This document shows, piece by piece, positions 3,874 to 47,960 of a stretch of 64,000 nucleotides of DNA. The stretch is from Patescibacteria group bacterium (lineage in GTDB: Bacteria; Patescibacteriota; Microgenomatia; Curtissbacterales; GWA2-41-24), in NCBI GenBank assembly GCA_038063735.1, contig JBBTUN010000004.1, positions 106,646 through 170,645 on the forward strand, read 5' to 3'. Position 1 is the first letter of the stretch. Each line of letters begins with the position of its first letter. The translations under genes and the position numbers were made by a program. Under the pieces are notes generated by a model. That model was not told the DNA's origin and made no database searches. It saw only the letters and a program-made list of their open reading frames with translations.

Positions 3874-3876
3874 TAA

Positions 3877-5655
3877 ATGGATTTTTACCATTCATTTCAA
3901 TCATCAGTTCGAGAAAAATTAAACATTTGGATAATTCTAATCCTATTATTAGGATCGTTATTGCGCCTTATCGACCTTGGTGGGATTCCTTCAGGTTTTC
4001 AGTACGACGAAATTCAAAGCGCTTACAACGGATTTTTAATTTCAAAACACTTAAAAAACATTCAAGGCGAATTTTTACCCACAGACATAGACTATTTTAG
4101 AGACTTTAGGCCGGCTTTTAATGCTTATCTCTCAAGTGTAACTGTCAAACTACTAGGCAACCATGAAACTTCAGGACGCCTGCCATCCGCTCTTTTAGGA
4201 ATAATCACAATATTGCTTGTATATTTACTAACTTTAAAGTTTTTTCAAAAAAAACAAATCGCAATCCTTGCAGCTCTGCTTATAGCAATTTCACCGTACC
4301 ATGTTATTTTTTCTCGCAGCTCATCCGATAGCATTATCGACGTAACACTTTCAATCTTCGCAATTTTAATTTCACTAAAATATTTAGGCAAGGGAGACAA
4401 AAAGTTGTTGCCATTGATATTAGTAACTTGGATCTTTAGTTTCTATACATATCAAACAGGCAGAATAATGATACCAATTTTATCTTCTGTAATAATTATT
4501 ATAGATTGGTTGAAAACGAAATCATTTAGCAAATCAAAATGGCTAATATTCACTTTAATAATATTTTTAATTTTCCCCCTAGGATACTCGATAGCAACAA
4601 AAAAAGGCTCAAGTAGATTTAATCAAGTAAGCGTTTTTGCAAACCCAGAAATTCAACGGTCACTAAATCAAATAATCACTGAATCCGGCGTCGTAGGTAT
4701 AAACCCTACAATAGTTCGAGTTTTCAATAACAAATTAATTTCTTACTCGATGCAGGCTTCACAGAATTATTTGTATTTTTTCTCTCCCGAAAATATGTTG
4801 TTTGACAAAAATGTGAAACCGCTAAGATACAAAATACCGCAAGTAGGGCTGATAACAATTACGGAATACCTCGGTCTCTTGGCGGCTTGTTACTTCTTCA
4901 TTAAAGGAAAAAACAAAATTAAGTCATCTTTTCCTTTCATAGCTATATTAATTGCTCCACTACCAGCTGCAATAACGTCCGAAGATTTTCAAAGATCCAT
5001 ATATCTAATACCCTACTGGCAAATTCTAGCTAGTTTTGGCTTATATAACATGATCAAATCTATCACCTCCAAAAAATTGTTATTATTTGGTGTGTCAATT
5101 GTTATTGTAGTAGTAACATACCAGGCATTATTCTTTGCCTATCAATATTTTCTGATTTCACCCGTCCATGAACCTTTTTATAGAACATACGAAAGGAAAG
5201 AATTAGCCATTTTCCTGGGCTCTAACGAAAATATGAACAAAAATGTCTTACTGTCAGAGTACGACGGAACATATATTTACTATCTATACTTTAATAAGTT
5301 GGATATATTTTCTCTGAAATATAAAAAACCAACCAAATACTTCGAGGGTGATTTTACTATGGTAAATATGACATTTAAAAAGAACAGATGCCTGGGAGGA
5401 AATGATTATTTGGAAAATCGATACGATATGTCTATTGAATATGAAGATTGCAAAAAATTTCCTTTTTTAGCGCCAGTCAAGGAATTTAGAAGAAAAGATG
5501 GCTCTTTAGTATTAGTTGCATACAATATAAACGGTTATATCTACGACTTACAAAGGCAGTATCAAGAAACCTGCGAGAAGGATTGGGGACCATCAGACGG
5601 TGATTTACTACAAAGTGCTAATTCCATTAGAACCACTATTAATAATTGTAATTAG
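3877..5655 (+). CDS. GT-C family glycosyltransferase (PMT/ArnT-like), paralog
   Basis: QYDEIQSAYNGFLISK loop-1 motif. Polytopic N-terminal half and a large soluble C-terminal domain. Confidence 0.65.
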   Translation: MDFYHSFQSSVREKLNIWIILILLLGSLLRLIDLGGIPSGFQYDEIQSAYNGFLISKHLKNIQGEFLPTDIDYFRDFRPAFNAYLSSVTVKLLGNHETSGRLPSALLGIITILLVYLLTLKFFQKKQIAILAALLIAISPYHVIFSRSSSDSIIDVTLSIFAILISLKYLGKGDKKLLPLILVTWIFSFYTYQTGRIMIPILSSVIIIIDWLKTKSFSKSKWLIFTLIIFLIFPLGYSIATKKGSSRFNQVSVFANPEIQRSLNQIITESGVVGINPTIVRVFNNKLISYSMQASQNYLYFFSPENMLFDKNVKPLRYKIPQVGLITITEYLGLLAACYFFIKGKNKIKSSFPFIAILIAPLPAAITSEDFQRSIYLIPYWQILASFGLYNMIKSITSKKLLLFGVSIVIVVVTYQALFFAYQYFLISPVHEPFYRTYERKELAIFLGSNENMNKNVLLSEYDGTYIYYLYFNKLDIFSLKYKKPTKYFEGDFTMVNMTFKKNRCLGGNDYLENRYDMSIEYEDCKKFPFLAPVKEFRRKDGSLVLVAYNINGYIYDLQRQYQETCEKDWGPSDGDLLQSANSIRTTINNCN

Positions 5656-5664
5656 AATTAACTT

Positions 5665-7251
5665 ATGAAAAATAAAATTTTAATATTAATAATCGTCCTT
5701 TCCTTTATCTTCAGATTTTACAGATTGGGCGAGATACCTTTAAGCCTTAATTGGGATGAAGTAAGTAATTCTTACAACGCATATTCGATATTAAAAACAG
5801 GTCGGGACGAATACGGCAATTTTTTACCCTTAACTAATCGTTCCTTTGACGATTATAAACCGCCCCTTTACATGTACTTGGACATAGTGCCTGTGGCTCT
5901 GGTGGGACTTAACGAAATTGCTGCAAGGCTTCCTTCCGCACTCTTTGGGGTAATGAGCGTATATGCCATTTATTTATTAACAAAAAGGTTGTCAAAAAAC
6001 GAAAAGACATCTCGCCTAAGCGCACTTCTTTTTTCTATCTCACCTTGGAATTTACTTTTTTCCAGAGTGGGGTTTGAAGCAAATATTGGGCTTTTCTTCT
6101 CAATCATAACTCTTATGCTATTTCACTATGCCCTTCGTTATTCAGAAAACAATCCAACCCCAAAAAACAAACTATTTTTAGTGTTAAGCGCTATCTTTGC
6201 AGCACTTTCTTTATACAGTTACCACTCCGTGAGGATTTTCTTGCCGCTAATTCTTTTTGTCTCGGCAGTGATCTACAGAGAGAATCTCTTAAAATTCGAT
6301 AAAAAGATTCTTTCGGTATCAATTTTGCTAGGTATCGCATTAACACTACCACTCGTACTTCTAAACCCCAAAGAAGCTATCACTGGCAGGTACGCAACAA
6401 CAACCCTAAAAGCAAGGTCCCAGGATTTGGAAAAATCAGTAAGTCTTATAAATGAGGATAGTAACGCCCGTCAATTCTTTGGCAACATAATTCATAACCG
6501 CAGATTAGTTATTCTGGAGTCAACACTTCAAAAATACATCTCTCATTTTGATATTAACTATTTATTTACTTCAGGAGACGACAACCCCAGACATCATCTT
6601 AAAACGAATGGCCTTCTATTCTTGGTTATGTTACCTCCAGTATTGTACGGAGTTTTTTCTTCCTTAAAAAAGAACAGCAAAGAAACACTCTTTTTATTTT
6701 CGTGGCTTATTGTCGCGCCTATTCCTGCCGCATTTGGAGACGCCTTCCCTCACGCCATAAGGAGCTACTTAATGGTTGTTCCCTTAACAATCTTTGGGGC
6801 TATCGGTTTAAAAAAAATAGTTACTTTTGAAAAATTCGCAAAATTTACCCTCGCCCTGTCTTCATTGATTCTTTTAGCAACCGTTGTTGCTTTTCTTCAT
6901 AATTATTTTGCTCACTACAATAAAGAAGAATACTCGTCTTGGCAATATGGCTATAAGGGGGCCGTTTTTGAATCAGCGAAACTTAAGGATCAGTTTGAAA
7001 AAGTTATAATTGATCCCGGCATAGAACAGGGGTACGCTTTTTGGCTTTTCTATTTAAAATACGATCCTAAGGCCTACCAGGAAAGTGGCAACGCCAAAAA
7101 CTTTGATAAATTTTATTTCGAAGATAACTTGCCCAAAGATGATAACAGTCTTTTTGTTTCACCATCAGAAAAATTTCCTGAAAGTTTTATTTTAGTTAAA
7201 ACAATTTACAATTCTGAAAACAATATATTGTTGAAATTGGGACACCCCTAA
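5665..7251 (+). CDS. GT-C family glycosyltransferase (PMT/ArnT-like), paralog
   Basis: NWDEVSNSYNAYSILKTGRDEYGNFLPL loop-1 motif. The C-terminal WQYGYK…YLKYDP block is shared with 1-683 and 2191-3873. Confidence 0.7.
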   Translation: MKNKILILIIVLSFIFRFYRLGEIPLSLNWDEVSNSYNAYSILKTGRDEYGNFLPLTNRSFDDYKPPLYMYLDIVPVALVGLNEIAARLPSALFGVMSVYAIYLLTKRLSKNEKTSRLSALLFSISPWNLLFSRVGFEANIGLFFSIITLMLFHYALRYSENNPTPKNKLFLVLSAIFAALSLYSYHSVRIFLPLILFVSAVIYRENLLKFDKKILSVSILLGIALTLPLVLLNPKEAITGRYATTTLKARSQDLEKSVSLINEDSNARQFFGNIIHNRRLVILESTLQKYISHFDINYLFTSGDDNPRHHLKTNGLLFLVMLPPVLYGVFSSLKKNSKETLFLFSWLIVAPIPAAFGDAFPHAIRSYLMVVPLTIFGAIGLKKIVTFEKFAKFTLALSSLILLATVVAFLHNYFAHYNKEEYSSWQYGYKGAVFESAKLKDQFEKVIIDPGIEQGYAFWLFYLKYDPKAYQESGNAKNFDKFYFEDNLPKDDNSLFVSPSEKFPESFILVKTIYNSENNILLKLGHP

Positions 7252-7273
7252 AAATACTCACAAGGGAGCATAA

Positions 7274-8812
7274 TTACTGGTAGTCTGGGTCGAATTTAGA
7301 CATTATCTTTTTAATCAAAAATTTCCAGAAGTCGTTGCCTGGTTTGGGTATATCTTTTTTCCACCATTCAACGGTATCAATATATATGTCCTCAGCATTT
7401 TGTCTGTACCACGTAATATTTGTATTCGCTCTAACCGCACTATTTAAAACTTGCCAGTTCCCTAGGCAGACCCCAATATTTTCCCCAGCATTGTAATTAA
7501 TACTGTGATTAAGCATTATCAAAGCAACCGGGTAGTTGATATTATTAACATCAGTACTGCAAGAGTACAGATCAATATTTCTGTTGGGAAACTCTACTAT
7601 AATTTCGGAGGCAATTTTTCTGGCTAGTAAATAATCCTTAGCTTTGGCACTAACATTATTAGAAGTCAAAAATAGTGTACAAATTGTTATTAGTAAAACT
7701 AAAATCAGGCCTAAATATCTATTTTTTCCTAGTAACCAGACACAAGTCGATGCGGTAATTAAAAATACCATAGGATAGGAAAATACAGAAAGGTATAATG
7801 CACGCCCACCTCGATAATATTTGAAAAGGAAAATTTCAACTAAAAATGACAAGATCAGGTAAAGATAAACAATGTTTTTTCTGAAGTTAACTATCCTTGT
7901 AGCTGTATATAGTCCGGATAAAAATATAATTAGCATAGCCACAATTTTGTTGCCACCAATTATTATTGCCCAAGTATTTGGCCAAAAGTCAAAAACGTAT
8001 GTTAACCATCGATTAGGAACCCAAAGTTTATTTTGGTCGAAAAGGAGGTAAATAAGTATGCTACGAAAATTGTACCAGCCAAACCTGTAGTCAAAATATA
8101 TTAGCGGGGAAAGTGCGAACAAACACCCGGCTGTCACCAATAGGGCACATATTATAAATTTAGAAAAGGGTCTGACAAGCAGTAGGGCAATAAATAACAT
8201 AGGAATTATTAATATGTTTTGAAAATGTACAGTCCAGGCTAAAAAGACAGAGAAACTTAGCAAAAATATATACACTTCCTTTCTAGTTTTGATAAATTTA
8301 ACAAAAAATAATAATGAGGTTAAAACCAGAATTGGAACAACTGATACATTCCAGGTAGTAAGTGAATTAGCCACCTGAGCTGGAGAGATTGATGCGAAGA
8401 ACGCAGACAGCAGTCCAACTTTTCTGCCAGCAGCATCCTTCCCTAATAGAAAAATTAGCATTATAAAAAGTAAATCAATTAGTGTGCTAAAAAACCAAGG
8501 AACTAAAAGGCCTGGTATAAAACTTATCAACACCAAATACCAGTAGTACCATGGTCCATAGAAAAATGGACCTGCGGATGAAAATTGACCTATCTGAGGA
8601 ATGAGGAAGTTTTTTGCAGCAAACTTTCCAATAATTACGTCCCTGGAATTATCAGCATTGAATGCAATTCTATGAGTATAGTTATATGTTCTAAGAAATA
8701 ACGCACATGCAAATATAAAAATGATTGTGACCGCGAATAATTTTTTCGATGTAGCTTGTTTATTGAGCCTTTTAAAGCTCTTTATTTGATTAAAATCATT
8801 GAACGAAATCAC
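7274..8812 (-). CDS. Polytopic membrane protein, probable GT-C glycosyltransferase (ArnT-like)
   Basis: 512 aa with more than 10 hydrophobic segments. Aromatic-rich periplasmic loops. The genomic context is glycosylation genes. Confidence 0.45.
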   Translation of the reverse strand: MISFNDFNQIKSFKRLNKQATSKKLFAVTIIFIFACALFLRTYNYTHRIAFNADNSRDVIIGKFAAKNFLIPQIGQFSSAGPFFYGPWYYWYLVLISFIPGLLVPWFFSTLIDLLFIMLIFLLGKDAAGRKVGLLSAFFASISPAQVANSLTTWNVSVVPILVLTSLLFFVKFIKTRKEVYIFLLSFSVFLAWTVHFQNILIIPMLFIALLLVRPFSKFIICALLVTAGCLFALSPLIYFDYRFGWYNFRSILIYLLFDQNKLWVPNRWLTYVFDFWPNTWAIIIGGNKIVAMLIIFLSGLYTATRIVNFRKNIVYLYLILSFLVEIFLFKYYRGGRALYLSVFSYPMVFLITASTCVWLLGKNRYLGLILVLLITICTLFLTSNNVSAKAKDYLLARKIASEIIVEFPNRNIDLYSCSTDVNNINYPVALIMLNHSINYNAGENIGVCLGNWQVLNSAVRANTNITWYRQNAEDIYIDTVEWWKKDIPKPGNDFWKFLIKKIMSKFDPDYQ

Positions 8813-8832
8813 TTTAGCTGTATACTAGCATA

Positions 8833-9594
8833 GTGAAAAATATTTCTGTAGCGCTAGCCTGTTACAACGAAGAGACCAATATTGTGGACTGCATTGAGGC
8901 TGCAAAACTCTTGGCAGATGAAATTATAGTAGTCGATGGTCACTCCCGGGATAGAACAGCTGAATTAGCACGCCAGCAAGGCGCAATTGTGGTTGAAGTT
9001 CCCAATAAAAAAATGTTTCACATTAATAAAAATATCGCCATTAAAAATTGCACAAATGAGTGGGTATTCGTATTGGATGCAGACGAGAGAATAACTGAAG
9101 ATCTTGCAATAGAAATAAAAAAAACACTAAGAAAAGTATCCAATGAAAAAGGCTTTTGGATAAATAGAAAAAACTGGTTTTTAGGGGGGTACTTAACAAA
9201 AGGTGGTGCCTACCCCGATGCTGTTATCAGATTATTTAAAAATGGATATGGAATTCATCCTGAAAAAGATGTGCACGAGCAAATTGCAATAAAAGGACCC
9301 CTTGGTCATATAACAAGCCCACTATTGCACTTAGCAGACCCCAATTTCGCAAGATACCTGGAAAGAGCGAATAGATACACCGACGAGACAAAGAGGCATT
9401 TCAAAGAGCAAAAACTAGCTAAAAATTTTCCGAACACAATTTATTATGTAATTATAAAACCAGCAATTACGTTCTTTAAGATTTATGTAAGACACAAAGG
9501 TTATGTGGATGGTTTTAGAGGCTTTGTCTGGGCGCTTTTTTCCTCAGCGCATTATTTTTATGCTTATTCTAAATACCTCACAGACAAAAAATAA
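8833..9594 (+). CDS. GT2 family glycosyltransferase (GT-A fold)
   Basis: VALACYNEE…IIVVDGHSRDRT…VLDADE motifs. GTG start. Divergent from 7274-8812. Confidence 0.7.
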   Translation: MKNISVALACYNEETNIVDCIEAAKLLADEIIVVDGHSRDRTAELARQQGAIVVEVPNKKMFHINKNIAIKNCTNEWVFVLDADERITEDLAIEIKKTLRKVSNEKGFWINRKNWFLGGYLTKGGAYPDAVIRLFKNGYGIHPEKDVHEQIAIKGPLGHITSPLLHLADPNFARYLERANRYTDETKRHFKEQKLAKNFPNTIYYVIIKPAITFFKIYVRHKGYVDGFRGFVWALFSSAHYFYAYSKYLTDKK

Positions 9595-9656
9595 TTTTAA
9601 CGCTTGCAATAATTCGTAAAACTTGATAACAATCTTATACAGTAACTTTTTTAAAA

Positions 9657-9666
9657 AAGGAGGTGA
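9657..9666 (+). promoter_or_regulatory. Strong Shine-Dalgarno AAGGAGGTGA, 9 nt upstream of the ATG at 9676
   Basis: Direct sequence match to the anti-SD. Confidence 0.55.
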
Positions 9667-9675
9667 TTAAAAAAC

Positions 9676-9813
9676 ATGCCCGCAAAGAAAAAATCAAAAC
9701 CTAAGAAAAAAGCTGCAAAAAAGACAACTAAGAAAAAAACCGTAAAAAAAGCTTCAAAGAAGAAAGCGGTAAAAAGGTCAACTAAAAGAAAAGCTACAAA
9801 GAAAAAGAGATAA
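9676..9813 (+). CDS. Small lysine-rich basic protein, 45 aa, histone H1-like or nucleoid-associated-like. Not in the ORF track.
   Basis: Translation is MPAKKKSKPKKKAAKKTTKKKTVKKASKKKAVKRSTKRKATKKKR. It is about 60% K/R. A strong RBS lies upstream and a hairpin plus T-run lies downstream. It sits in the only sizable intergenic gap (9595-9922) in the first 20 kb. Confidence 0.5.
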   Translation: MPAKKKSKPKKKAAKKTTKKKTVKKASKKKAVKRSTKRKATKKKR

Positions 9814-9837
9814 GTTGTTTCTATTCAGTTCGAACTG

Positions 9838-9889
9838 CCCACCTCCAAGTTTTAAAGTGAATCTTTAAAAACATGTAGGTGGGTTTTAT
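9838..9889 (+). terminator. Putative intrinsic terminator with a long loop
   Basis: CCCACCT (9838-9844) pairs with AGGTGGG (9877-9883). It is followed by TTTTATT. Confidence 0.3.
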
Positions 9890-9922
9890 TGTATCTACCA
9901 TCTCCTGATATAATTTTGATTA

Positions 9923-10954
9923 GTGAAAGTTGCATTTAACATATCGCCAAATTCAACAAACCACAAATTTCGGGGCATAGGTGTTTACACCTTATCACTC
10001 CAAAGAGCCCTCAAAGAGCATTCGGGTAAAGAGATTGATATTGAGTTCTTCTCAGCTATCAAAGAACCAGCCGGCTTTGATTTAATTCATTACCCATACT
10101 TCGATTTGTTTTTCCACACACTCCCTATGCAAAAAAAAACTTGCCGAGTTGTAACGATTCATGACGTAATACCACTGATCTTTCCGGATAAATTTCCTGT
10201 GGGTATAAAAGGCAAATTTAACCTGCTTTTGCAAAAACGGGCTCTTAAAAACACGGATGCTGTAATATGTGACTCATATCAATCAAAAAAAGATATTCAA
10301 AAATATCTAAACTTCCCGGAAGAGAAAATACATGTGGTCTACTTGGCAGCGGACAAAATATTTACAAATTTTAGGACCATTCCGCCAGCTATCAGGCTAA
10401 AATACAAGCTCCCTTCCAAATTTGTTCTATATGTTGGAGACGTTAATTATAATAAGAACATACTAAATCTTCTGGATGCTGTAAAAATTACAGGTGTCAA
10501 CCTAGTCATGGTTGGATCAGCAATTATTAACGACAAAATACCCCAGGTGCAAGAAATAAATCACAAAATCTCAAAATTAGGCTTACAAGATAAGATTACT
10601 AAAACAGGCTATATCCCAGACTCGGAACTGGTAGCAATTTACAACCTGGCCATTGTAACTCTAGTGCCGTCATTGTACGAAGGTTTTGGACTACCTTTAG
10701 TAGAAAGTATGTCTTGTGGCACCCCCGTCATTGCCGCTAAAAATTCATCACTAACTGAAATCGGTGGCGAAGCGGCTTTCTATTGCAAAGCAGAAGATCC
10801 AACAGACCTCGCCAATAAAATTAAGAAGGTTGTTGGTCTAAACGAGAAGGAACTCTCAAGCATCAGGCAAAAATCCCTTAAAAACGCAAGAAAATATTCT
10901 TGGTCGAAAACTGCTCAGGAAACTATTAATGTATACAAGTCGGCTATCAAGTGA
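9923..10954 (+). CDS. GT4 family glycosyltransferase (GT-B fold)
   Basis: EGFGLPLVESMSCGTPVIA motif, typical of GT4. GTG start. Confidence 0.75.
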   Translation: MKVAFNISPNSTNHKFRGIGVYTLSLQRALKEHSGKEIDIEFFSAIKEPAGFDLIHYPYFDLFFHTLPMQKKTCRVVTIHDVIPLIFPDKFPVGIKGKFNLLLQKRALKNTDAVICDSYQSKKDIQKYLNFPEEKIHVVYLAADKIFTNFRTIPPAIRLKYKLPSKFVLYVGDVNYNKNILNLLDAVKITGVNLVMVGSAIINDKIPQVQEINHKISKLGLQDKITKTGYIPDSELVAIYNLAIVTLVPSLYEGFGLPLVESMSCGTPVIAAKNSSLTEIGGEAAFYCKAEDPTDLANKIKKVVGLNEKELSSIRQKSLKNARKYSWSKTAQETINVYKSAIK

Positions 10955-12060
10955 AACATAAATTTAATGACATCTATCTAGTAATTTTCCTTTTTATAAC
11001 CTGGCGCCTATTTATATTCACAGTGGCTGCCATTGCACCAAAATTTATACCCAACTTCGGTGGAACATTTCCATATTACAATGAGCGATTAATTTCCACA
11101 GGCTTGCCATATTATATTTGGTCCTTTGGGAATTTCGATGGTGTTCACTATTTAGGTATTGCCAGGGACGCCTACGCTTATCAGTTCACACAAGCCTTCT
11201 TCCCACTTTATCCAATATTAATAAAACTAGTCTCAATGATATTATTTAATAAGTATTTAATATCCGCCCTTCTTATATCAAACATCTGTTTCCTTGCCGC
11301 CCTGCTATTATTTTATAATCTGACAAAACGCATATACTCAAAAAGTGTTGCTCTTTGGTCGTGTGTATTTTTAATTTCTTTCCCAACGTCTTTTTACTTT
11401 GGATCAATCTACACAGAAAGCCTATTTTTACTTTTAGTCGTCCTCTCGTTTTATTTTTTTGAACAAAATAAAATAATTCTCGCCTCACTAATAGGAGGTA
11501 TCGCCTCTTTTTCCAGATTGGTAGGAATATTCTTAGCGCCTGCACTTGTTAAAAAAATCACCATAAAAAACTTAATACCAATTTTGATTGTTCCAACGGG
11601 GTTAATTATTTATATGATTTACTTGCAATATAAATTTCATAATGCGCTCTACTTTCTTACCGCACAAAGCGCCTTCGGGCAAGAAAGAGCAACAACAAAA
11701 ATTGTTTTACTCCCGCAGGTAATTTACCGGTGGATAGCTCAAATCACTTCGTCCCACGGACCCCAATTATTTGTATCAACTTTTGAATTAGCCGCTACCT
11801 TATTTGCCCTGCTGACTTTAATAGTAGGCGCCAGGAAAGTGAAAAGAGAGTGGTTAATTTTTAGCTCCCTTGCGCTTATTACACCAACATTAACGGGCAG
11901 CTTGGCATCTATGCCAAGATATATTCTCGTCGCTTTTCCAATTTTTATCATCCTTGCACATATTAAAAATCTTTATATTAAGCTGTTTATTACGGCGACA
12001 TTTATAATTCTTCTAACATACTGCGTATCTATGTTCACACGTGGTTACTGGATAGCGTAA
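10951..12060 (+). CDS. GT-C mannosyltransferase-like membrane protein (PIG-V/GT76-like)
   Basis: FDGVHYLGIARDAY motif resembling the PIG-V family 'W/FDxxHYLxIAexGY' motif. About 8 TM segments. Confidence 0.5.
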   Translation: MKHKFNDIYLVIFLFITWRLFIFTVAAIAPKFIPNFGGTFPYYNERLISTGLPYYIWSFGNFDGVHYLGIARDAYAYQFTQAFFPLYPILIKLVSMILFNKYLISALLISNICFLAALLLFYNLTKRIYSKSVALWSCVFLISFPTSFYFGSIYTESLFLLLVVLSFYFFEQNKIILASLIGGIASFSRLVGIFLAPALVKKITIKNLIPILIVPTGLIIYMIYLQYKFHNALYFLTAQSAFGQERATTKIVLLPQVIYRWIAQITSSHGPQLFVSTFELAATLFALLTLIVGARKVKREWLIFSSLALITPTLTGSLASMPRYILVAFPIFIILAHIKNLYIKLFITATFIILLTYCVSMFTRGYWIA

Positions 12061-12087
12061 CAAATCAAAATTTGATATCATCCAGTC

Positions 12088-12456
12088 ATGGGTTTTTATC
12101 AACTTCTAGTAGTAAGTGTAATTTTTAATGTAACAGCCAACATTTTACTAAAAAAAGGAGTACTCTCCTTTGGCGGAATGAGTGGCGAAAAATCAAAAAT
12201 AATTGTTGAACTGTCCAAAGCAGCCGTAAATCCATTTGTACTTGTAGGCCTGGTACTGTATGGCCTTTCATTTTTAATATGGCTACGCGTATTGTCATTT
12301 AACGATTTATCAAAATCCTATCCAATATTTGCTACATGTGTTTTCCTCCTAACTACTTTAGGATCATTAAAATTCCTGGGGGAACAAATCACGCTAATGA
12401 GAATTGTGGGAATTGCCGTAATGCTTTTTGGTATTTTTATCGTTTCCCGTTCCTAG
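12088..12456 (+). CDS. Small 4-TM EamA/SMR-like membrane protein (ArnE/ArnF-like candidate polyprenyl-P-sugar flippase subunit)
   Basis: 122 aa with four hydrophobic helices. It lies immediately upstream of a DPM1/ArnC-like GT2. Confidence 0.45.
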   Translation: MGFYQLLVVSVIFNVTANILLKKGVLSFGGMSGEKSKIIVELSKAAVNPFVLVGLVLYGLSFLIWLRVLSFNDLSKSYPIFATCVFLLTTLGSLKFLGEQITLMRIVGIAVMLFGIFIVSRS

Positions 12457-12462
12457 TCATAA

Positions 12463-13143
12463 GTGAATGCAGCAATTGTAATACCTGCTTTTAACGAAGC
12501 AGCTGTCATTTATAAAGTAGTAAAGTTTCTTCCGAAAAAGCTAAAAGGTATTAAAGATATCAGAGTTGTCGTTGTAGACGATGGATCAACAGACGACACA
12601 CGCTTACAAGCTAAAAAAGCTGGGGCTATTGTCCTGAGGCATCCTGTAAACAGAGGTGTTGGTGCAGCAACTAAGACAGGAATCGAATGGGCACGCAAGC
12701 AGTCTATCGATTTACTTATTACTTTCGATGCAGACGGCCAGCATAATCCCATAGATATACCAAGGCTCATTAAACCAATAATTAAAAACGAAGCAGATCT
12801 GGTGATAGGCTCACGGTTCAAAAGGCAGCAAAGTATACCCTTAGACCGGCTCATTTTAAATTGGTCTGCAAACTTAATCACCTTCATGCTATTCGGTATT
12901 TTTTCAACAGATTCACAATCAGGATTAAGAGCAATGTCCAAAAGAGCCATCAGAAATCTGAATTTTAAAAACGATAGAATGGAATTTTCAACGGAGGTCT
13001 TAATTGAGGCCAAGCGAAATAAATTAAAAACACGAGAAGTTCCAACGAGTGCCGTTTACACAGTTTACTCCAGAAAAAAAGGACAAAAAAACACGAACGC
13101 ATTTCCAATCTTTATCCGTTTTCTTGTAAAATGGCTTCGATGA
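12463..13143 (+). CDS. GT2 polyprenyl-phosphate sugar synthase (DPM1/ArnC/GtrB-like)
   Basis: IVIPAFNEA…VVVVDDGSTDDT…TFDADGQH motifs. Confidence 0.7.
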   Translation: MNAAIVIPAFNEAAVIYKVVKFLPKKLKGIKDIRVVVVDDGSTDDTRLQAKKAGAIVLRHPVNRGVGAATKTGIEWARKQSIDLLITFDADGQHNPIDIPRLIKPIIKNEADLVIGSRFKRQQSIPLDRLILNWSANLITFMLFGIFSTDSQSGLRAMSKRAIRNLNFKNDRMEFSTEVLIEAKRNKLKTREVPTSAVYTVYSRKKGQKNTNAFPIFIRFLVKWLR

Positions 13144-14030
13144 AAAAAATACTTGTAACTGGCGCTGGAGGATTTGTAGGCACTCATTTAATTGCTTTCC
13201 TTGCTAAAAAAAATTATCAATTAACAGCACTTGTTATGACTAATAGAGAGAAAAAAAGGTTAAAAGGGACAAGAAGTGTACTGGTTGCAGATTTATCAAA
13301 AAAAGGTACATGGCAAAAGAATTTGACGGGTTACGATCTGGTTATACATCTGGCTGCACAAATTTCGGCAAAAACACCTGATCTCTTTATAAAAAATAAC
13401 GTCGTCGCGACCCAAAATCTCATCGATGCCTTAAAAAAAAGTAAAGTTCCGGAAATAATACATTTTTCCTCCGCGGCGGTGACTTCAATTCGCCTCGATG
13501 ATTACGCCAGAACCAAAAAGACTCAAGAAGAAACAGTTAGAAAATCAAAGCTCAAATACACAGTTCTAAGACCATCTATGATATATGGCCCGGGTGATAC
13601 AAAAAATGTCGGCTGGTTAATTAAGATTGTAAAAAGTCTACCAATCATTCCCCTGCCAGGGGGCGGAGGGTTTGGCAGGCAACCTGTTTTTGTTGAAGAT
13701 ATTTGTAGGATAGTTGAAAAAACTATAAAAACAGGGTCCAAAAACAAAATATATGAAATTCATGGTAAAGAATATGTGAGTATGAAAAGAATGATAAACG
13801 TAATAGTAAAAAAGCTAAAAGCAAAGAGGATCCTAATAAATGTTCCCATCGCACTATTATTATTAGCAGTCAAGGCTAATGAATTCCTCTTGCCAAATCC
13901 TAAATTTACAACGGATCAAATAATGTCGCTTATTTCAGGGGAAAAATTTAAAGGTGATAAATGGTGGATTACGTTTGATATAATACCAACCAAGTTTGAA
14001 ACAGGAGTTGCCAAGATGATAAAAGGATAA
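13131..14030 (+). CDS. NAD-dependent epimerase/dehydratase (SDR). The start may be the ATG at 13140 (ATGA overlap).
   Basis: VTGAGGFVGTHL Rossmann motif. YARTK catalytic Y-x3-K. Confidence 0.65.
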   Translation: MASMKKILVTGAGGFVGTHLIAFLAKKNYQLTALVMTNREKKRLKGTRSVLVADLSKKGTWQKNLTGYDLVIHLAAQISAKTPDLFIKNNVVATQNLIDALKKSKVPEIIHFSSAAVTSIRLDDYARTKKTQEETVRKSKLKYTVLRPSMIYGPGDTKNVGWLIKIVKSLPIIPLPGGGGFGRQPVFVEDICRIVEKTIKTGSKNKIYEIHGKEYVSMKRMINVIVKKLKAKRILINVPIALLLLAVKANEFLLPNPKFTTDQIMSLISGEKFKGDKWWITFDIIPTKFETGVAKMIKG

Positions 14031-14384
14031 ATGCTTACATCAATTCAGATAATCCTAATACTATTCATAATCTTTGCTTTATCTAGAGTAATCTTAAGAC
14101 TTAGAGAAAAAGTAATTTCAACCCTTACTGCGGTTTTTTGGAGCGCAATTTGGCTAGCCGCCTTTGCCGGAATACTTCTGCCTAAAACTACGACAAAAAT
14201 TGCAGAATTTTTCGGCGTCGGAAGAGGGGTGGACGTTATTGTTTACTTATCGCTCGCACTACTTTTTTATTTGGTTTTTAGAGTTTACGTAATGATTGAA
14301 GATATACGCCATGAGATTACAGAAATCGTAAGATTAGTCGCACTCAAAAACACTCCAAAAAAGAAAAAATCTTCCAAGAAATGA
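14031..14384 (+). CDS. Small membrane protein (DUF2304-like), commonly paired with GtrB-like GT2 genes
   Basis: 117 aa with 3 TM helices and a K-rich C-terminus. Confidence 0.4.
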   Translation: MLTSIQIILILFIIFALSRVILRLREKVISTLTAVFWSAIWLAAFAGILLPKTTTKIAEFFGVGRGVDVIVYLSLALLFYLVFRVYVMIEDIRHEITEIVRLVALKNTPKKKKSSKK

Positions 14385-15523
14385 AACTTCTCTTTATCTC
14401 GGAATACTTTCCAAGAGGGAAAGAGTTACGTTTTAGTGGAGGTGTCGAGGCCCGAACATTTTACATTGCCAAGTATCTAGCCAAAAAACATGAAGTTCAT
14501 GTGGTAACTTCAAAATTAAGTGACACAAAATCAAACGAAAAGCTGTTTGGAATCAATGTGCATCGAGTAGGGCCAATAAGAGTTTATAAGCCAGGTGCCG
14601 AAACGTCGTCAATAATTGCCATCATAAATTTCACACGAGAAGCAATTAAAGTAGGTCAAAATTTGAAACCAGATATCGTTGACGGAGGAAATTTCATCAG
14701 TCACACAATTGCAAAAGAGATAGGTAATAAGCTAAAAATTCCAACCGTTTTTTGGTATCCTGACGTCTTTTTGGGTAATTGGGTTAAAACATCAGGATAC
14801 ATTGCGGGACTAGGGGGTTGGCTAAATGAAAAATTTAATCTGCTTAGAGGCGCTGACATGTTTATTGCAATATCTAAAGTAACAAGAGATAAGTTAATAA
14901 AAAACGGCGTAAGTTCATCTAAGATAAGAGTGATACCCTGCGGAGTGGATAAAAAAGAATTTGTGGGTACAAGCCATAAATACAATGAAACCACGATAGT
15001 GTGCGTTAGTAGACTTGTTGGCTACAAACGAATTGAGGATTTAATCTGGGCTTTTGCCTTGTTGCTGAAAGAAAATAAAGGTATCCAGCTAGTAATTATA
15101 GGAAGAGGCCCAACTGAAAATAAAATAAATAACATAATAAAAATGCTAAATATCAAAAAACATGTGACGATTAAATTAAATCTGCCTAGAAAAGAATTAA
15201 TAGAAACTTTAAAGTCTTCACACTTATTTTGTCTTCCATCAGAAATCGAGGGTTTCGGAATAAGTGTAGTCGAAGCTATGGCTGCAAAAATACCTTATGT
15301 AATAAGTAACATTCCTGTGTTTAAAGAAATTACGCACAACGGTAAGGGTGGTTCCGTCTTCAAACTTGGTGATCAGCAAGACCTAAAGTCTAAGTTAAGC
15401 AAATTATTAAGCAATAAATCTTTTTACAACAGTAAGATCAAAGAATCTGAAGGCCTACTGAGCATATATAACTGGGAAAAAATAGCCTCACAAACTGAGT
15501 CTGTCTACAAAAGCCTATTATGA
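14381..15523 (+). CDS. GT4 family glycosyltransferase
   Basis: EGFGISVVEAMAAKIPYVIS motif. Confidence 0.75.
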   Translation: MKLLFISEYFPRGKELRFSGGVEARTFYIAKYLAKKHEVHVVTSKLSDTKSNEKLFGINVHRVGPIRVYKPGAETSSIIAIINFTREAIKVGQNLKPDIVDGGNFISHTIAKEIGNKLKIPTVFWYPDVFLGNWVKTSGYIAGLGGWLNEKFNLLRGADMFIAISKVTRDKLIKNGVSSSKIRVIPCGVDKKEFVGTSHKYNETTIVCVSRLVGYKRIEDLIWAFALLLKENKGIQLVIIGRGPTENKINNIIKMLNIKKHVTIKLNLPRKELIETLKSSHLFCLPSEIEGFGISVVEAMAAKIPYVISNIPVFKEITHNGKGGSVFKLGDQQDLKSKLSKLLSNKSFYNSKIKESEGLLSIYNWEKIASQTESVYKSLL

Positions 15524-16602
15524 AAGTTGCCGTAATCATTGACACTTGGTTTCCTTTTGTGGGCGGCGGTCAGATTAACGCTTGGGAGATTTCAAAAAGA
15601 CTTGCTCACAAGGGTCAAGATGTCGAAATAATTACCAGAAACTGCGGAAAAGATAGCCTCCAAAGCATTAAAAATTTAAAAGTTGCCAAACTTGGCCCAA
15701 AATCAAAAACTGGTAACAATTTTTCCAAAATAATATTTATTTTCAGAGCCTTTTTTTATGTACACAAAAGAGATTTCGATTTAGTTCATGCACATGCTTT
15801 TTTCCCGGGTATCACCGCGAGGCTAGTGACTGTGTTTAAAGGAACCCCAAGCATCTTTACCGTCCATGGTACATCGCTTAATACAAAACTCAATGGTCTA
15901 GCGTCTAGATTAGTTGAAAACTTTATACTAACAAAAATACTTTATTCCGCCCAAATCACTGTATCAAGAGATTTTTATAAAATAAAAAATGTTAACAAGA
16001 ATATAATTTTTATTCCGAACGGTGCATATATAAAAAATTACAATAGTAATACACAAAAAGAAAATTTACTGTGTGCAGCTAGACTTCACCCTCAGAAAAA
16101 CTTAGATAACTTAATAAAAGCATTTAAAATAATAGAAAGAAAATATCCTCATATAAAATTACAGATAGCAGGTGATGGTCCCCAAAAAAAATACCTACAA
16201 GAACTTGTAAAAAATCTGAATTTAAACAACAAAGTGAAATTTTTAGGATTATTGGACAAAAAATCACTTAATAAACTTTACTCAACATCAAAATTATTTA
16301 TTTTATCATCAGTTTACGAAGGACAACCCCTGACGGTTCTGGAGGCATTTGCTGCTAAGCTTCCAGTAGTTGTCACTAGAACCGGAGACCTTCCATATAT
16401 TGTAAAGGAAGGTGTAAACGGTTTTTTTATAAGCGATCCTTTAAATCCTCGGAGTATAGCAACAAGTATAATCAAAGCTTTAAATAATAATAATCTTGGC
16501 AAGCTCGGTAATAACGGATTCAATCTAGTTAAAAATAATTACACTTGGGATAAAATTGGCCAGAAAACATATGAACTATACAGGCAAACAATCAAAAACT
16601 GA
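15520..16602 (+). CDS. GT4 family glycosyltransferase
   Basis: YEGQPLTVLEAFAAKLPVVVTRTG motif. Confidence 0.75.
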   Translation: MKVAVIIDTWFPFVGGGQINAWEISKRLAHKGQDVEIITRNCGKDSLQSIKNLKVAKLGPKSKTGNNFSKIIFIFRAFFYVHKRDFDLVHAHAFFPGITARLVTVFKGTPSIFTVHGTSLNTKLNGLASRLVENFILTKILYSAQITVSRDFYKIKNVNKNIIFIPNGAYIKNYNSNTQKENLLCAARLHPQKNLDNLIKAFKIIERKYPHIKLQIAGDGPQKKYLQELVKNLNLNNKVKFLGLLDKKSLNKLYSTSKLFILSSVYEGQPLTVLEAFAAKLPVVVTRTGDLPYIVKEGVNGFFISDPLNPRSIATSIIKALNNNNLGKLGNNGFNLVKNNYTWDKIGQKTYELYRQTIKN

Positions 16603-17389
16603 AGTAAGCGTAATTATGGCAGTTTATAATGGTATGCCATTTTTAAAGCAGGCCGTAAAAAGCATACTGAATCAAACATTTAAAAACTTCGAATTCATTA
16701 TAGTGGACGACGGATCAAGCGATGGAACATGCGAATACCTTAAAAAAATAAATAACAATAGACTTAAGATTATAAAAAACAAAAAAAACTTTGGCCTTGC
16801 AACATCACTCAACAAGGCATTTAAAGTATCAATTGGTAAGTATGTTGCAAGAATGGATGCTGACGATATAAGTTTGCCAAAACGTCTAGAATTGCAATAC
16901 TATTTTATGAAAAATAAACCTGAGGTTGATATTTGTGGAACTTGGGTGGCAATAATTGATGAAAACGGCAGAAAGATAGGCAAAGTTCATTATCCCGTTG
17001 GCGACAAAGACATTAAAAAAACTTTGAGAAAAGTGACACCTCTCATTCACCCCACATGGTTTTTAAGGCGATCAGTATTTAATGAGCTGAAAGGGTATAA
17101 ACCCGTATGGGATATTGTAGAAGACTACGATTTCTTGCTCCGGGCAAAGAACTTCAAAATGGCCAATATTCCAAAAGAATTAGTTTACTGGCGAACACAA
17201 AAAAATCGTCGGTCAACTAAAGACATACAAAAAATGTACAAAAAAAGCCTAATGCTCCGGCTTGAATATTTTAAACAAGGAAAATTAGATATCTCATACC
17301 TACCTTATGTCGTTAGAAGTGTTATTACAACTTACATTATTCCTCCAAAGCTTAAGATATATTTAAATCAAAAAGCACATTTAATATGA
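16556..17389 (+). CDS. GT2 family glycosyltransferase. The start is uncertain; 16556 and 16571 are both candidates.
   Basis: VSVIMAVYNG…FEFIIVDDGSSDGT…RMDADD motifs. Confidence 0.7.
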   Translation: MARKHMNYTGKQSKTEVSVIMAVYNGMPFLKQAVKSILNQTFKNFEFIIVDDGSSDGTCEYLKKINNNRLKIIKNKKNFGLATSLNKAFKVSIGKYVARMDADDISLPKRLELQYYFMKNKPEVDICGTWVAIIDENGRKIGKVHYPVGDKDIKKTLRKVTPLIHPTWFLRRSVFNELKGYKPVWDIVEDYDFLLRAKNFKMANIPKELVYWRTQKNRRSTKDIQKMYKKSLMLRLEYFKQGKLDISYLPYVVRSVITTYIIPPKLKIYLNQKAHLI

Positions 17390-18279
17390 ATTTAAGCAAT
17401 AAAAAAGTTTTAGTAACAGGAAGTTCGGGCTTCATAGGCGAAAATTTAAAAACAAGACTTATTAAAGAGGGGGCGCAAATAACAATATTTGACAAACGAA
17501 ATGGTGATGACGTCAAAGATGAAAAAAAAATGGCTGGGACTCTAAAAAACAATTTTGACATCATATACCATTTAGCAGGAGTTTCGGGAAGCGCAGGTAG
17601 CAACAAAAATGCGATCGAATCTTTTAAAATCAACACACTTGCCACGATAAAAATGCTTGCATTAGTATGCAAAATATCACCAAAAACAAAAATAATACTC
17701 TCTAGCTCGAGACTAGAATACGGAATACCTAGAAAATTACCTGTTGGGGAAAGTCATCCAACAGAGCCGAATTCAATTTACGGTTTATCAAAATTACTCG
17801 CAACTCAATATGCACTTTTACTCGCCAAAACACAAAAACTAAATGTGACCATTTTTAGGACATCGAACACTTATGGTCCACACGAAAAAGAAAAGTTCCA
17901 CGGTTATAATCTCATAAATCATTTTATCGATTTAGCAAAAAGCAACAAAAAAATAGTAATTTTTGGCCATGGCGATCAGCTTAGGGATTATATTTATATC
18001 GATGATTTAATTGATGCATTCATACTAGCAAATCAAAAAATTGCTTCCGGTAAAATTTACAATTTAGGATACGGAAAAGGTGTTTCACTGATGGAAATGG
18101 CCACTTTGATTGTTGAAAAAACCGGTAATGGCAATATCATTTCTCGGCCGTGGCCGCAAGAATATAAAAACGTCGAAACAGGTAGCTATATTAGTGATAT
18201 AAGGGCAATAAATAATGATCTAAATTTTGTACCTAGAACAACTTTTGTAGAGGGCATTATCAAGACAATTAATAATTAA
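17386..18279 (+). CDS. NAD-dependent sugar epimerase/dehydratase (SDR)
   Basis: VTGSSGFIGENL motif and YGLSK Y-x3-K. Confidence 0.7.
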   Translation: MNLSNKKVLVTGSSGFIGENLKTRLIKEGAQITIFDKRNGDDVKDEKKMAGTLKNNFDIIYHLAGVSGSAGSNKNAIESFKINTLATIKMLALVCKISPKTKIILSSSRLEYGIPRKLPVGESHPTEPNSIYGLSKLLATQYALLLAKTQKLNVTIFRTSNTYGPHEKEKFHGYNLINHFIDLAKSNKKIVIFGHGDQLRDYIYIDDLIDAFILANQKIASGKIYNLGYGKGVSLMEMATLIVEKTGNGNIISRPWPQEYKNVETGSYISDIRAINNDLNFVPRTTFVEGIIKTINN

Positions 18280-19388
18280 TGAGAATATGTTCACCTCAAC
18301 TCGGACTTGCCCCAAATTCAGTACTCGGAGGAGAGGTATTTGATAGACAAATATTACTCGGCTTGGCTAAAAAAGGTGTTAAAGTTGAAGTTATTTTGCC
18401 AAAAAATCTGCCTCATGACAAAAAGGTAAAAAATTGGGATATCACATTTCTGCCAGTCGCCCACTTCCCCGCGGTTTTCGGCAATTTACTTTACTTGCCA
18501 TACCTCTTTAAGATTTATAAGAAGAACAAATTTCAAATATTAAGAATTCATCAACCACAATTTTTAGGAATAGGATGCTTGATTTTTAAGATTTTTAAAA
18601 AAGACGTAAAACTGTTTGCAAATTACCATCGATTTAAAGAGACAAATTTTGGGCCTTTTTCTAAATATATAAATAAGAAATGGGATCATATCATCTGCGA
18701 TAGCGAAAATGTAAAGAAGAAAATTAACCAGTCGTATCAGGTTCCAAAGTCTAAAATTACCGTTATCCATAATGGTATCCCAAGTTACTTGAAGCCGACA
18801 AAAAAGGATCCAAAGTTAATAAAAACACTAAAACTGGAGGGTAAATTTGTGATGCTTTTCATGGGACTCTTTATAAAAAGAAAAAATCCACAATTTTTAA
18901 TTGATGTACTAGATGAATTAGTAAAAAGAGACAAAAACTATGCTGTCCTTTTTTGGGGTGAAGGGCCCTTGAAAGAGAGAATAATTAAAAAGGCCCAAGA
19001 ATTGGGGCTGCTTGAGAATATAAAATTTATTAAGCCAGTATTTGGTGCAAAAAAGAATAAAATCCATAATCTTGCAGATATTTTTGTGCACCCGTCCCTA
19101 GATGAAGGCTTAGCTCTAGCCCCTTTAGAGGCAATGGCTTGCGCCAAACCAATTATTATGACTAGCGGTTACTCATCAAAAGAAATAGTTGAAGATGGGA
19201 AAAATGGCTATATTGTTAGGGCTAATGATATTAAAGACTGGTCAAATAAAATCTATGCACTGAGTAGTAATAAATATTTGTCAACAAGAATGTCAATTCA
19301 CACTTTAAAAAAAGTTGTAAATGATTTTAATTGGTTAAAAAGCGTACAGATAAATTTTGAAGTAATTAAAAAATTAACAAGGATATGA
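18279..19388 (+). CDS. GT4 family glycosyltransferase
   Basis: DEGLALAPLEAMACAKPIIMT motif. TAATG overlap. Confidence 0.65.
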   Translation: MRICSPQLGLAPNSVLGGEVFDRQILLGLAKKGVKVEVILPKNLPHDKKVKNWDITFLPVAHFPAVFGNLLYLPYLFKIYKKNKFQILRIHQPQFLGIGCLIFKIFKKDVKLFANYHRFKETNFGPFSKYINKKWDHIICDSENVKKKINQSYQVPKSKITVIHNGIPSYLKPTKKDPKLIKTLKLEGKFVMLFMGLFIKRKNPQFLIDVLDELVKRDKNYAVLFWGEGPLKERIIKKAQELGLLENIKFIKPVFGAKKNKIHNLADIFVHPSLDEGLALAPLEAMACAKPIIMTSGYSSKEIVEDGKNGYIVRANDIKDWSNKIYALSSNKYLSTRMSIHTLKKVVNDFNWLKSVQINFEVIKKLTRI

Positions 19389-20880: not shown

Positions 20881-20936
20881 TACACTTATTATATAGCACA
20901 AAACATTGCGAAAAAGGTTGCCAGGGAAGCTAAAAA

Positions 20937-33658: not shown

Positions 33659-33731
33659 TTTAAAGTATAAACTTCAGATTAAGCAATACAAGTTGAATAG
33701 ATACTAAAAATATTAGACAATACTCGAAATT

Positions 33732-45434: not shown

Positions 45435-45436
45435 AA

Positions 45437-47208: not shown

Positions 47209-47246
47209 ATCGACGACATTGTAATTAATTGTTTAGTCAAATACAA

Positions 47247-47954: not shown

Positions 47955-47960
47955 AAGTAA

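Follow-up and report, generated by a model that had tools for sequence, protein, structure and literature searches.

Extracytoplasmic glycosylation by three components, in which a family 2 glycosyltransferase (GT2) loads a sugar onto a polyprenyl phosphate, a flippase takes the loaded lipid across the membrane and a membrane glycosyltransferase of the GT-C fold passes the sugar on, is well known from the Arn, Gtr, CsbB/GtcA/YfhO, GacIJKL and PpgS/Rv3632/Rv3779 systems. A gene cassette from the Candidate Phyla Radiation (CPR) is probably another complete system of this kind, adding a single sugar from a lipid carrier to a surface molecule. It occupies positions 10951-14384 of a 64,000-nucleotide stretch (the window) of contig JBBTUN010000004.1, from a Patescibacteria assembly of groundwater origin (Hainich). 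The cassette encodes a PIG-V-like GT-C, a 122-aa membrane protein of the SMR fold, a soluble GT2, a short-chain dehydrogenase/reductase (SDR) and a DUF2304 protein.

Among characterised systems, the closest are GacI/GacJ/GacK/GacL of Streptococcus pyogenes, which makes the GlcNAc side chain of the group A carbohydrate, and PpgS (Rv3631)/Rv3632/Rv3634c/Rv3779 of Mycobacterium tuberculosis, with counterparts in Corynebacterium glutamicum, which places galactosamine on arabinogalactan. In S. pyogenes, the 113-aa DUF2304 protein GacJ, with three transmembrane (TM) segments, is purified together with the GT2 GacI. In the presence of GacJ, the Km of GacI for undecaprenyl phosphate falls from 18.7 to 1.1 µM, and its Vmax climbs from 54 pmol to 18.5 nmol per min per mg (bioRxiv 10.1101/180810). 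The GacJ homologue of M. tuberculosis, Rv3632, is co-transcribed with PpgS and stimulates it (PMC9671496). The final extracytoplasmic sugar transfer is performed by a GT-C in both systems, GacL in S. pyogenes and Rv3779 in M. tuberculosis (bioRxiv 10.1101/180810; PMC9671496).

The window locus resembles the Gac system in its soluble GT2 of about 230 aa, which in S. pyogenes makes sugar-P-undecaprenol, in the 3-TM DUF2304 protein of about 113 aa that is the adjacent activator there, and in having the flippase gene and the GT-C in the same cluster. It differs in the candidate flippase, which is a 4-TM SMR-type protein here and of the Wzx type in GacK (a Wzx protein fills the slot in some Woesebacteria loci), in the PIG-V family membership of the GT-C, and in the SDR inserted between GT2 and DUF2304. 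A DUF2304 partner, an SDR (an epimerase in mycobacteria) and a final GT-C are shared with the PpgS system; unlike there, the window SDR is not GalE-like, and the GT2 scores far below the PpgS cutoff of 370 bits. In mycobacteria no flippase has yet been identified and the GT-C gene lies apart from the others (PMC9671496), whereas here the parts are contiguous with a candidate flippase. The ArnC/ArnE-ArnF/ArnT system, which adds aminoarabinose to lipid A, offers the same sequence of a GT2 that loads undecaprenyl phosphate, an SMR-type protein that flips the product and a GT-C that transfers the sugar, and the Asn-for-Glu replacement of lipid SMRs is common to the Arn system and the 122-aa protein (PMC9574504). 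The GtrA/GtrB/GtrX and CsbB/GtcA/YfhO systems follow the same three-component scheme (PMC7389260) but use a GtrA-family flippase and a GtrB-type GT2 with TM helices of its own, and no DUF2304 protein. A eukaryotic parallel is found in the dolichyl-phosphate mannose (Dol-P-Man) synthase (DPM1 with its small membrane proteins DPM2/DPM3) together with PIG-V/Gpi18, the mannosyltransferase II of glycosylphosphatidylinositol (GPI) synthesis (CAZy GT76), to which the GT-C is homologous from TM1 to about TM6. DUF2304 is not known as a homologue of DPM2 or DPM3. PIG-V adds an alpha-1,6-mannose from Dol-P-Man to a GPI intermediate, and the acceptor of the GT-C must differ from that of PIG-V because bacteria lack GPI. 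In the literature searched, the contiguous combination, in CPR, of a PIG-V-family GT-C, a GacI/PpgS-type synthase with DUF2304 and an SMR-type flippase is undescribed, as is the lineage-specific swapping of transporters and SDRs that belongs to it.

Gene arrangement and conservation in Microgenomates

Five open reading frames (ORFs) on the forward strand fill the segment exactly (Table 1). The preliminary description of this DNA had given the same succession of GT-C, small membrane protein, GT2, SDR and DUF2304 protein. Its coordinates and strand are confirmed, and all five family calls hold, with matches to PF04188, PF00893, PF00535, PF01370 and PF10066. The junctions from the family 4 glycosyltransferase (GT4) gene upstream to the GT4 gene downstream measure -4, +27, +6, -13 (or -4), 0 and -4 nt; with gaps of -4 to +27 nt the arrangement is operon-like. 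The SDR start in NCBI/ENA is the ATG at 13140, which makes an ATGA overlap with the GT2 stop codon. Consensus scans over 8700-20400 found 42 promoters against 41.5 expected and 8 terminators against 8.8 expected, and because these counts are at chance level the scans do not set the operon boundaries. The 64-kb window holds no tRNA genes. Identical proteins are deposited from a Patescibacteria metagenome-assembled genome (MAG) as MEK7580989-MEK7580993, under the NCBI names 'mannosyltransferase family protein' (GT-C), 'hypothetical protein' (the 122-aa protein), 'glycosyltransferase family 2 protein', 'NAD(P)-dependent oxidoreductase' (SDR) and 'DUF2304 family protein'.

Members of the GT-C family were detected in 312 species-level genomes; the best 80 loci were kept, 72 of them with enough downstream sequence. 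Among these best 80 of 312, the loci with credible titles all belong to the Microgenomates group of CPR, in the lineages Curtiss-, Davies-, Gottesman-, Woese-, Chisholm-, Shapiro- and Cerribacteria and WWE3. The GT-C, a PpgS-like GT2 and DUF2304 are encoded on one strand within at most 3.5 kb in 56 of the 72 loci (78%). This core trio spans Curtiss-, Davies-, Gottesman-, Woese- and Chisholmbacteria and WWE3, at GT-C identities down to 37%. The recurrence of the arrangement in other CPR genomes, though their GT-Cs have diverged to 37-61% identity, argues that it is not due to chance. We also observe that many GTDB species-representative MAGs titled 'uncultured Gammaproteobacteria' or 'Pseudomonadales' (TPA_asm) carry the cassette at 40-60% identity with the same synteny (L008, L010, L012, L015, L017, L022 and L023 among them); their titles seem to misstate the taxonomy.

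The slot between GT-C and GT2 changes its content between lineages. The SMR gene is present in 15/15 loci of the closest clade (GT-C identity at least 52%) against 0/65 of the others (family hidden Markov model (HMM), E<=10). In Gottesman- and Daviesbacteria the slot is empty, and the GT2 starts about 4-15 nt after the GT-C stop. It is occupied in L068 and L040 by a 294-aa protein of the drug/metabolite transporter (DMT) type with two EamA domains (111 and 102 bits), in L029 and L055 by a classical SDR, and in L050 and L031 by a Wzx/Polysacc_synt protein, both of these last two loci having an architecture that lacks DUF2304. In this alternative architecture, seen in 16/72 loci, a PIG-V-like GT-C and a Wzx-type protein are joined by another type of GT2, about 270-306 aa long and with weak similarity to PgfS or PpgS. 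Three classes of protein are recognised as flippases for lipid-linked sugars: SMR (ArnE/F), Wzx/MOP and GtrA (PMC7389260).

Conservation extends upstream of the five genes. A GT4 orthologue lies directly upstream of the GT-C in 14/15 close and 57/65 other loci (71/80), and in the window it overlaps the GT-C start by 4 nt. The upstream GT2 is kept about 1 kb 5' of the GT-C in 12/15 close and 53/65 other loci (65/80), and a PMT_2-type GT-C is syntenic further upstream in 49/80, where the 6-kb flanks restrict the count. Conservation of the two downstream GT4 genes is mostly confined to the close clade. The conserved block reads PMT_2 ... GT2 - GT4 - GT-C - (transporter) - (SDR) - GT2 - DUF2304. 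The limits drawn in the preliminary description enclose the five packed genes, which form the 3' part of this block, and leave the conserved upstream GT4 and GT2 outside.

The GT2 synthase and its DUF2304 partner

The cassette GT2 matches PF00535 with 103.9 bits, carries the motifs DD39-40, DAD89-91 and TDSQSGLR, and has no predicted TM segment. Its best NCBIfam model is that of PpgS, the polyprenyl-phospho-GalNAc synthase of mycobacteria (160.8 bits, E 3.2e-47; residues 4-218 against profile positions 3-217 of 226), followed by AglJ (102.4 bits) and, far below, ArnC (40.3 bits). The PpgS score does not reach the equivalog cutoff, and the GT2 is therefore a relative and not an orthologue, whose sugar specificity cannot be transferred from PpgS. 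The best PDB match is the Dol-P-Man synthase of Pyrococcus furiosus (5mlz, E 5.8e-14), while ArnC is matched in its catalytic core only. The protein is a predicted polyprenyl-phosphate sugar synthase of the PpgS/GacI/DPM1 type, in agreement with its first description as a soluble DPM1-like GT2. By analogy with DPM3, a GT2 that lacks TM helices would depend on a small membrane protein.

A candidate for such a protein is encoded at the 3' end of the cassette. The DUF2304 protein matches PF10066 over its full length (80 bits, E 1.8e-22, gathering score 25.5; residues 5-107 against profile positions 2-104 of 106) and has three hydrophobic segments, as the preliminary description had it. Its gene lies 888 nt downstream of the GT2 with one SDR gene between them, and the two are directly adjacent in most relatives. 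By analogy with GacJ and Rv3632, it is the predicted membrane partner and activator of the GT2, a role that had been missing from the preliminary description.

A divergent PIG-V family member

The GT-C is a polytopic membrane protein. Its family profile matches no PDB sequence even at E<=10, and its classification consequently needed fold comparison, which yields the GT-C fold. The window protein exceeds the gathering score of PF04188 (PIG-V) by little, with 22.9 bits against 22.4 over residues 48-181 only, and PF04188 is matched by 35/35 members of the family at a best E of 1.1e-11. Membership in the PIG-V family was examined by profile-profile comparison (hhalign) against 14 aligned vertebrate 'GPI mannosyltransferase 2' proteins. 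A human PIGV sequence served as bait for their retrieval, and only the returned database proteins entered the alignment. The comparison gave a 97.2% probability and an E of 4.5e-11 across 182 columns, pairing GT-C residues 12-194 with PIGV 14-211, from TM1 to about TM6. The C-terminal half remained unaligned, and the GT-C is 369 aa long against about 490 aa for PIGV.

Acidic motifs right after TM1 are general among GT-C enzymes (PMC6801728), and in PIG-V the first luminal loop bears the signature D/ExE with an aromatic residue after it (PMC6056205). In the window protein the first external loop contains NFDGVHY (nt 11131-11151) with the putative catalytic Asp63, and the motif FDGVHYLGIARDAY covers residues 62-75 (nt 11134-11175). 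In the structure model D63 falls within the loop that joins helices 7-32 and 86-97, and it is invariant in 35/35 GT-C sequences. Aligned residues that are invariant in both families (GT-C:PIGV) are D63:D67, H66:H70, I70-A71:I74-A75, Y75:Y79, AFFP:AFFP, Y154-x-E156:Y168-S-E170 and R189:R203; Y67 is aligned with F71 at the aromatic position. The GT-C is a genuine, divergent and compact member of the PIG-V family, and its PIG-V-like label stands.

The candidate flippase

The 122-aa protein passes the gathering score of the SMR family (PF00893) with 25.6 against 23.7 bits and also matches EamA and TMEM234 below threshold; all three families belong to the DMT clan. Among 35 aligned relatives, SMR and EamA are matched by 35 and TMEM234 by 34, and a match to another family appears in one relative only and is weak (DUF2160, E 0.0078). 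The protein had been described as 4-TM, SMR/EamA-like and flippase-like, and the matches assign it to this clan and not to an unrelated family. The only Pfam model that aligns with it at full length is TMEM234 (PF10639; residues 6-119, profile positions 1-112 of 113), at 21.5 bits against a gathering score of 30.1 and with a best E of 9.1e-7 among relatives. TMEM234 is a eukaryotic DMT-clan family without an assigned function (Pfam). For the predicted structure (pLDDT 82), the top nine Foldseek matches are all Gdx-Clo or EmrE, with probabilities of 0.85-1.0 and TM-scores of 0.42-0.70.

ArnF is the best NCBIfam model of the protein (50.5 bits, E 2.5e-13, full length), followed by ArnE with 26 bits and the drug exporters QacC and EbrB with 16-18 bits. 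The ArnF and ArnE scores lie below their equivalog cutoffs of 99 and 92 bits, and the protein is therefore ArnE/F-like and not an ArnE or ArnF orthologue. In 121 homologues position 14 is an invariant Asn, with no Asp or Glu in TM1. We take Asn14 to be the exact counterpart of Glu14 of EmrE, on our own reading of the motif rather than a tool alignment. Lipid-transport SMRs have the central TM1 Glu replaced, often by Asn, and are mostly singletons (PMC9574504). ArnE and ArnF of Escherichia coli and Salmonella are two adjacent paralogues that form a heterodimer, whereas the cassette has a single SMR-like gene: we found no second one in the 64-kb window (phmmer, E<=1) or in the 80 loci (family HMM, E<=10), with one per locus in the 15 relatives. 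Since lipid SMRs are mostly singletons, a paralogous pair is not a defining feature of the subtype.

The SMR gathering score, the proximity to the solved structures of Gdx-Clo and EmrE, and the JGI label 'EmrE-like cation transporter' on relatives would all suit an ordinary SMR exporter of guanidinium, quaternary cations or polyamines that is present in the cluster by chance. We consider this very improbable. The central Glu, essential for proton/cation coupling, is the invariant Asn in every homologue, the ArnF score exceeds those of QacC and EbrB, and the gene is fixed between GT-C and GT2 throughout its clade, with EamA or Wzx proteins there elsewhere. The 122-aa protein fits the ArnE/ArnF functional subtype and has a predicted flippase role. 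The swapping of transporter families in one gene slot is the best available evidence that it would move a lipid-linked sugar. BLASTP between the 122-aa protein and the EamA protein of the L068 slot is not significant (E 0.45); their relation is at the clan level only, and no derivation of one from the other is claimed.

The variable SDR

The SDR matches PF01370 with 96.6 bits and has an intact Rossmann motif GAGGFVG and YARTK, in line with the original family call; its best family matches are HpnA-like (68.9 bits for HpnA) and OleD-like. This type of SDR occurs in 6/15 of the closest loci. A cassette SDR is absent in WWE3 and several Curtissbacteria. In L001 and L020 the SMR gene is instead followed by a GalE/RmlB-like SDR, with the GT2 after it, and more distant lineages carry GalE/RmlB-like or GDP-fucose-synthase-like SDRs at other positions. 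The window SDR and that of the L001 cassette are 25% identical, against 57% for the GT-Cs of the same two genomes. On these comparisons the SDR is a variable, non-orthologous and replaceable accessory, which probably sets or tunes the identity of the sugar.

It is possible, if doubtful, that the SDR acts at the membrane on the lipid-linked sugar, oxidising, reducing or epimerising the polyprenyl-P-sugar before it is flipped. Precedents for action at this level are DprE2 on decaprenyl-P-ribose and ArnD after ArnC. The only full-length PDB matches of the SDR are membrane-peripheral proteins of the NDUFA9/NUEM type, with GalE-type proteins matching its N-terminal (Rossmann) half only. The gene sits between the GT2 and its DUF2304 membrane partner and is coupled to both. 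Whether or not a locus has this SDR, its GT2 resembles the window GT2 to the same degree (278-320 bits), which hints at an unchanged GT2 donor. The E-values of the PDB matches, however, are weak (about 1e-10), the cassette SDRs of sister lineages are classical nucleotide-sugar enzymes of the GalE/RmlB-like or GDP-fucose-synthase-like types, and the analogous pathways of M. tuberculosis, C. glutamicum and Streptococcus mutans use UDP-sugar epimerases (PMC9671496 for M. tuberculosis). The simplest reading is that the SDR slot supplies the correct nucleotide sugar. Action at the nucleotide-sugar level is most likely, although the role of the SDR is the weakest assignment of the proposed pathway.

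The proposed pathway

The Arn-like logic of the preliminary description is supported as a mechanism, with GT2 loading, a candidate flippase of the SMR type whose top model is ArnF, and a GT-C in one cassette. The DUF2304 protein would hold the soluble GT2 at the membrane and activate it, and the GT2 would load polyprenyl phosphate from a nucleotide sugar at the cytoplasmic face, as its homologues do. The SDR would adjust the identity of the sugar, most likely while it is still a nucleotide sugar. The family of the SMR-fold protein, its hallmark residue and its replacements in the slot suggest that it passes the polyprenyl-phosphate sugar outward across the membrane; with Asn in place of the central Glu, this passage would probably not be coupled to protons. 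Homology and fold point to the PIG-V-like GT-C as the enzyme that would transfer the sugar to an acceptor outside, with Asp63 as the catalytic residue. The conserved upstream GT4 and GT2 probably build this acceptor in the cytoplasm-facing part of the pathway. The analysis itself establishes gene order, families and folds, conserved motifs and synteny, and the steps of the pathway are deduced from these. For the sugar, an N-acetylhexosamine (HexNAc) or a hexose is most likely. HexNAc is somewhat more likely than the mannose implied by the PIG-V name, since both PpgS, the best family of the GT2, and its analogue GacI make HexNAc-P-polyprenol.

Several observations weigh against this pathway. 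The SMR-like gene is absent from 42/56 loci that keep the GT-C, GT2 and DUF2304; it is therefore not universally required in cis, and flipping would there proceed without it or by another protein. The Arg/Lys bias of the 122-aa protein is about -4: loops 1 and 3 together bear 7 charges, and the termini with loop 2 bear 3. Biases of singleton SMRs are centred on 0, with 3% beyond +/-2, and +/-4 is typical of a heterodimer protomer (PMC9574504), so that a bias of about -4 in a singleton resembles one fixed-topology half of a heterodimer. The model of the 122-aa protein has an unusually long loop 1 and an extra amphipathic helix (residues 35-46) that bears three charges, and because of these the charge-bias rule perhaps does not apply cleanly. 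The match of the window GT-C to PIG-V is marginal and restricted to the N-terminal half. The PIG-V catalytic motif that the preliminary description had called is kept in its first acid, D63, and not in its second: PIGV E69 corresponds to an invariant Val65 in the GT-C family (DxE to DxV). Lastly, the pairing of the GT2 synthase with the PIG-V-like GT-C rests on adjacency, and the six other GT-Cs of the window could use the same donor.

The degenerate DxE motif might mean that the GT-C is a non-catalytic lipid-binding or scaffold protein like PIG-U. This seems highly unlikely: D63 is invariant and aligns with the invariant D67 of PIGV, the Y-x-E and Arg residues are kept as well, and several active GT-Cs, such as PimE, depend on a single Asp. 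No such acidic motif is conserved in PIG-U (PMC6056205). A single catalytic Asp, D63, is plausible in the GT-C.

The other GT-Cs of the window raise the further question of whether the genes form a unit at all. They might be mere neighbours in a very large glycan island, the GT2/DUF2304 donor serving the tandem PMT_2 GT-Cs instead or also. Five PMT_2 GT-Cs in tandem and a sixth further downstream (Table 1) all need polyprenyl-linked donors, the window has one clearly PpgS-like synthase only, and a PMT_2 gene is often syntenic upstream. We nevertheless regard the absence of a dedicated unit as unlikely, because the GT-C, GT2 and DUF2304 genes are immediately adjacent, often overlapping, in the 56 core loci while their downstream flanks vary, and because the GT2 follows the GT-C stop so closely in Gottesman- and Daviesbacteria. 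The PMT_2 enzymes may share the product of the lone clear PpgS-like synthase. Such sharing is compatible with a dedicated cassette, and only its exclusive version is a true rival.

The surrounding glycan island

The tandem PMT_2 array upstream of the cassette is also syntenic in L001 and L003. Just downstream of the GT4/GT2 block of the cassette, 19385-22013 holds dTDP-rhamnose-related genes. WbpA/WbpB/WbpI-like genes (Epimerase_2, GFO_IDH_MocA oxidoreductase, UDP-sugar dehydrogenase) lie at 31879-35980, where the opposite strand carries a second formyltransferase gene; the set suggests that a 2,3-diamino uronic acid sugar is made, perhaps in formylated form. An apparent nonulosonic-acid pathway (legionaminic or pseudaminic-like) occupies 40491-49244 on the reverse strand. 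Its PIG-L family deacetylase (45437-46099) was considered as a member of the cassette, the M. tuberculosis pathway having no identified deacetylase, and was rejected: it is about 31 kb away, on the other strand and within the nonulosonic set. A link between the GT4 and PIG-A was likewise dropped, as Pfam gives no PIGA-domain match. Large ORFs at 26190-27893, 35922-37298 and 38774-40489 (567, 458 and 571 aa) have no Pfam match on record; they may encode further GT-Cs, or else membrane polymerases or ligases not yet characterised.

Table 1. Coordinates of the cassette genes, of other glycan genes in the window, and of related loci with the alternative architecture (the latter in the numbering of each locus)
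Feature	Position	Strand	Description
PIG-V-like GT-C	10951-12060	+	369 aa, about 10-11 TM helices
SMR-fold 4-TM protein	12088-12456	+	122 aa
Soluble GT2, PpgS/GacI/DPM1 type	12463-13143	+	226 aa, 0 TM
Extended SDR, HpnA/NDUFA9-like type	13131-14030	+	299 aa, or 296 aa from ATG at 13140
DUF2304 protein, GacJ/Rv3632 counterpart	14031-14384	+	117 aa, 3 TM and charged C-terminal helix
GT4 glycosyltransferase, cytoplasmic	9923-10954	+	343 aa; PF00534 103.3 bits
Upstream GT2 glycosyltransferase	8833-9594	+	253 aa; PF00535 65.6 bits
Five tandem PMT_2-type GT-Cs	680-8812	+ and -	504, 560, 592 and 528 aa on +; 512 aa on -; Pfam PMT_2
Further PMT_2-type GT-C	37279-38787	-	Pfam PMT_2
RmlC-like dTDP-sugar isomerase	20254-20952	-	flanked by RmlB/RmlD-like SDRs
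Nonulosonic set, part 1	within 40491-49244	-	475-aa SDR, hexapeptide acetyltransferase, DegT aminotransferase, hydrolysing 2-epimerase (Epimerase_2)
Nonulosonic set, part 2	within 40491-49244	-	formyltransferase (N and C domains), PIG-L family deacetylase, NeuB, CTP_transf_3 CMP-transferase, Methyltransf_13/14
Alternative architecture, L050	7110-9971
Alternative architecture, L031	7158-9207
Alternative architecture, L063	7165-9229		Wzx split into two ORFs

Significance

The relation to PIG-V invites a wider comparison, in which the cassette would be the bacterial equivalent, in compact form, of the eukaryotic Dol-P-sugar pathway and of GPI and phosphatidylinositol mannoside (PIM) type synthesis. 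The cytoplasmic GT4 would start a glycolipid, the DPM1-like GT2 and its small partner would make the donor, and the PIG-V homologue would extend the glycolipid outside. We hold this equivalence to be improbable. If true, the slot gene would name a family of polyprenyl-phosphate monosaccharide flippases, and TMEM234-like proteins would become testable candidates; to our knowledge, the eukaryotic Dol-P-Man flippase is still unidentified.

As a probable three-component system, the cassette holds nothing surprising in principle. The GT2-DUF2304 pairing of streptococci and mycobacteria extends to CPR and is there linked to a GT-C of the PIG-V family, which has otherwise been studied in eukaryotic GPI synthesis only. 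The occurrence of SMR, EamA/DMT and Wzx proteins in the same slot provides comparative evidence on polyprenyl-phosphate monosaccharide flippases that bears on the mycobacterial pathway, and the compact, fully contiguous arrangement makes the three-component system suited to heterologous expression. Uncultivated and with tiny genomes, CPR bacteria (Patescibacteria) are believed to be host-attached. Despite the small size of CPR genomes, more than 40 kb are devoted here to glycan synthesis, and surface glycans probably matter for the lifestyle of these organisms.

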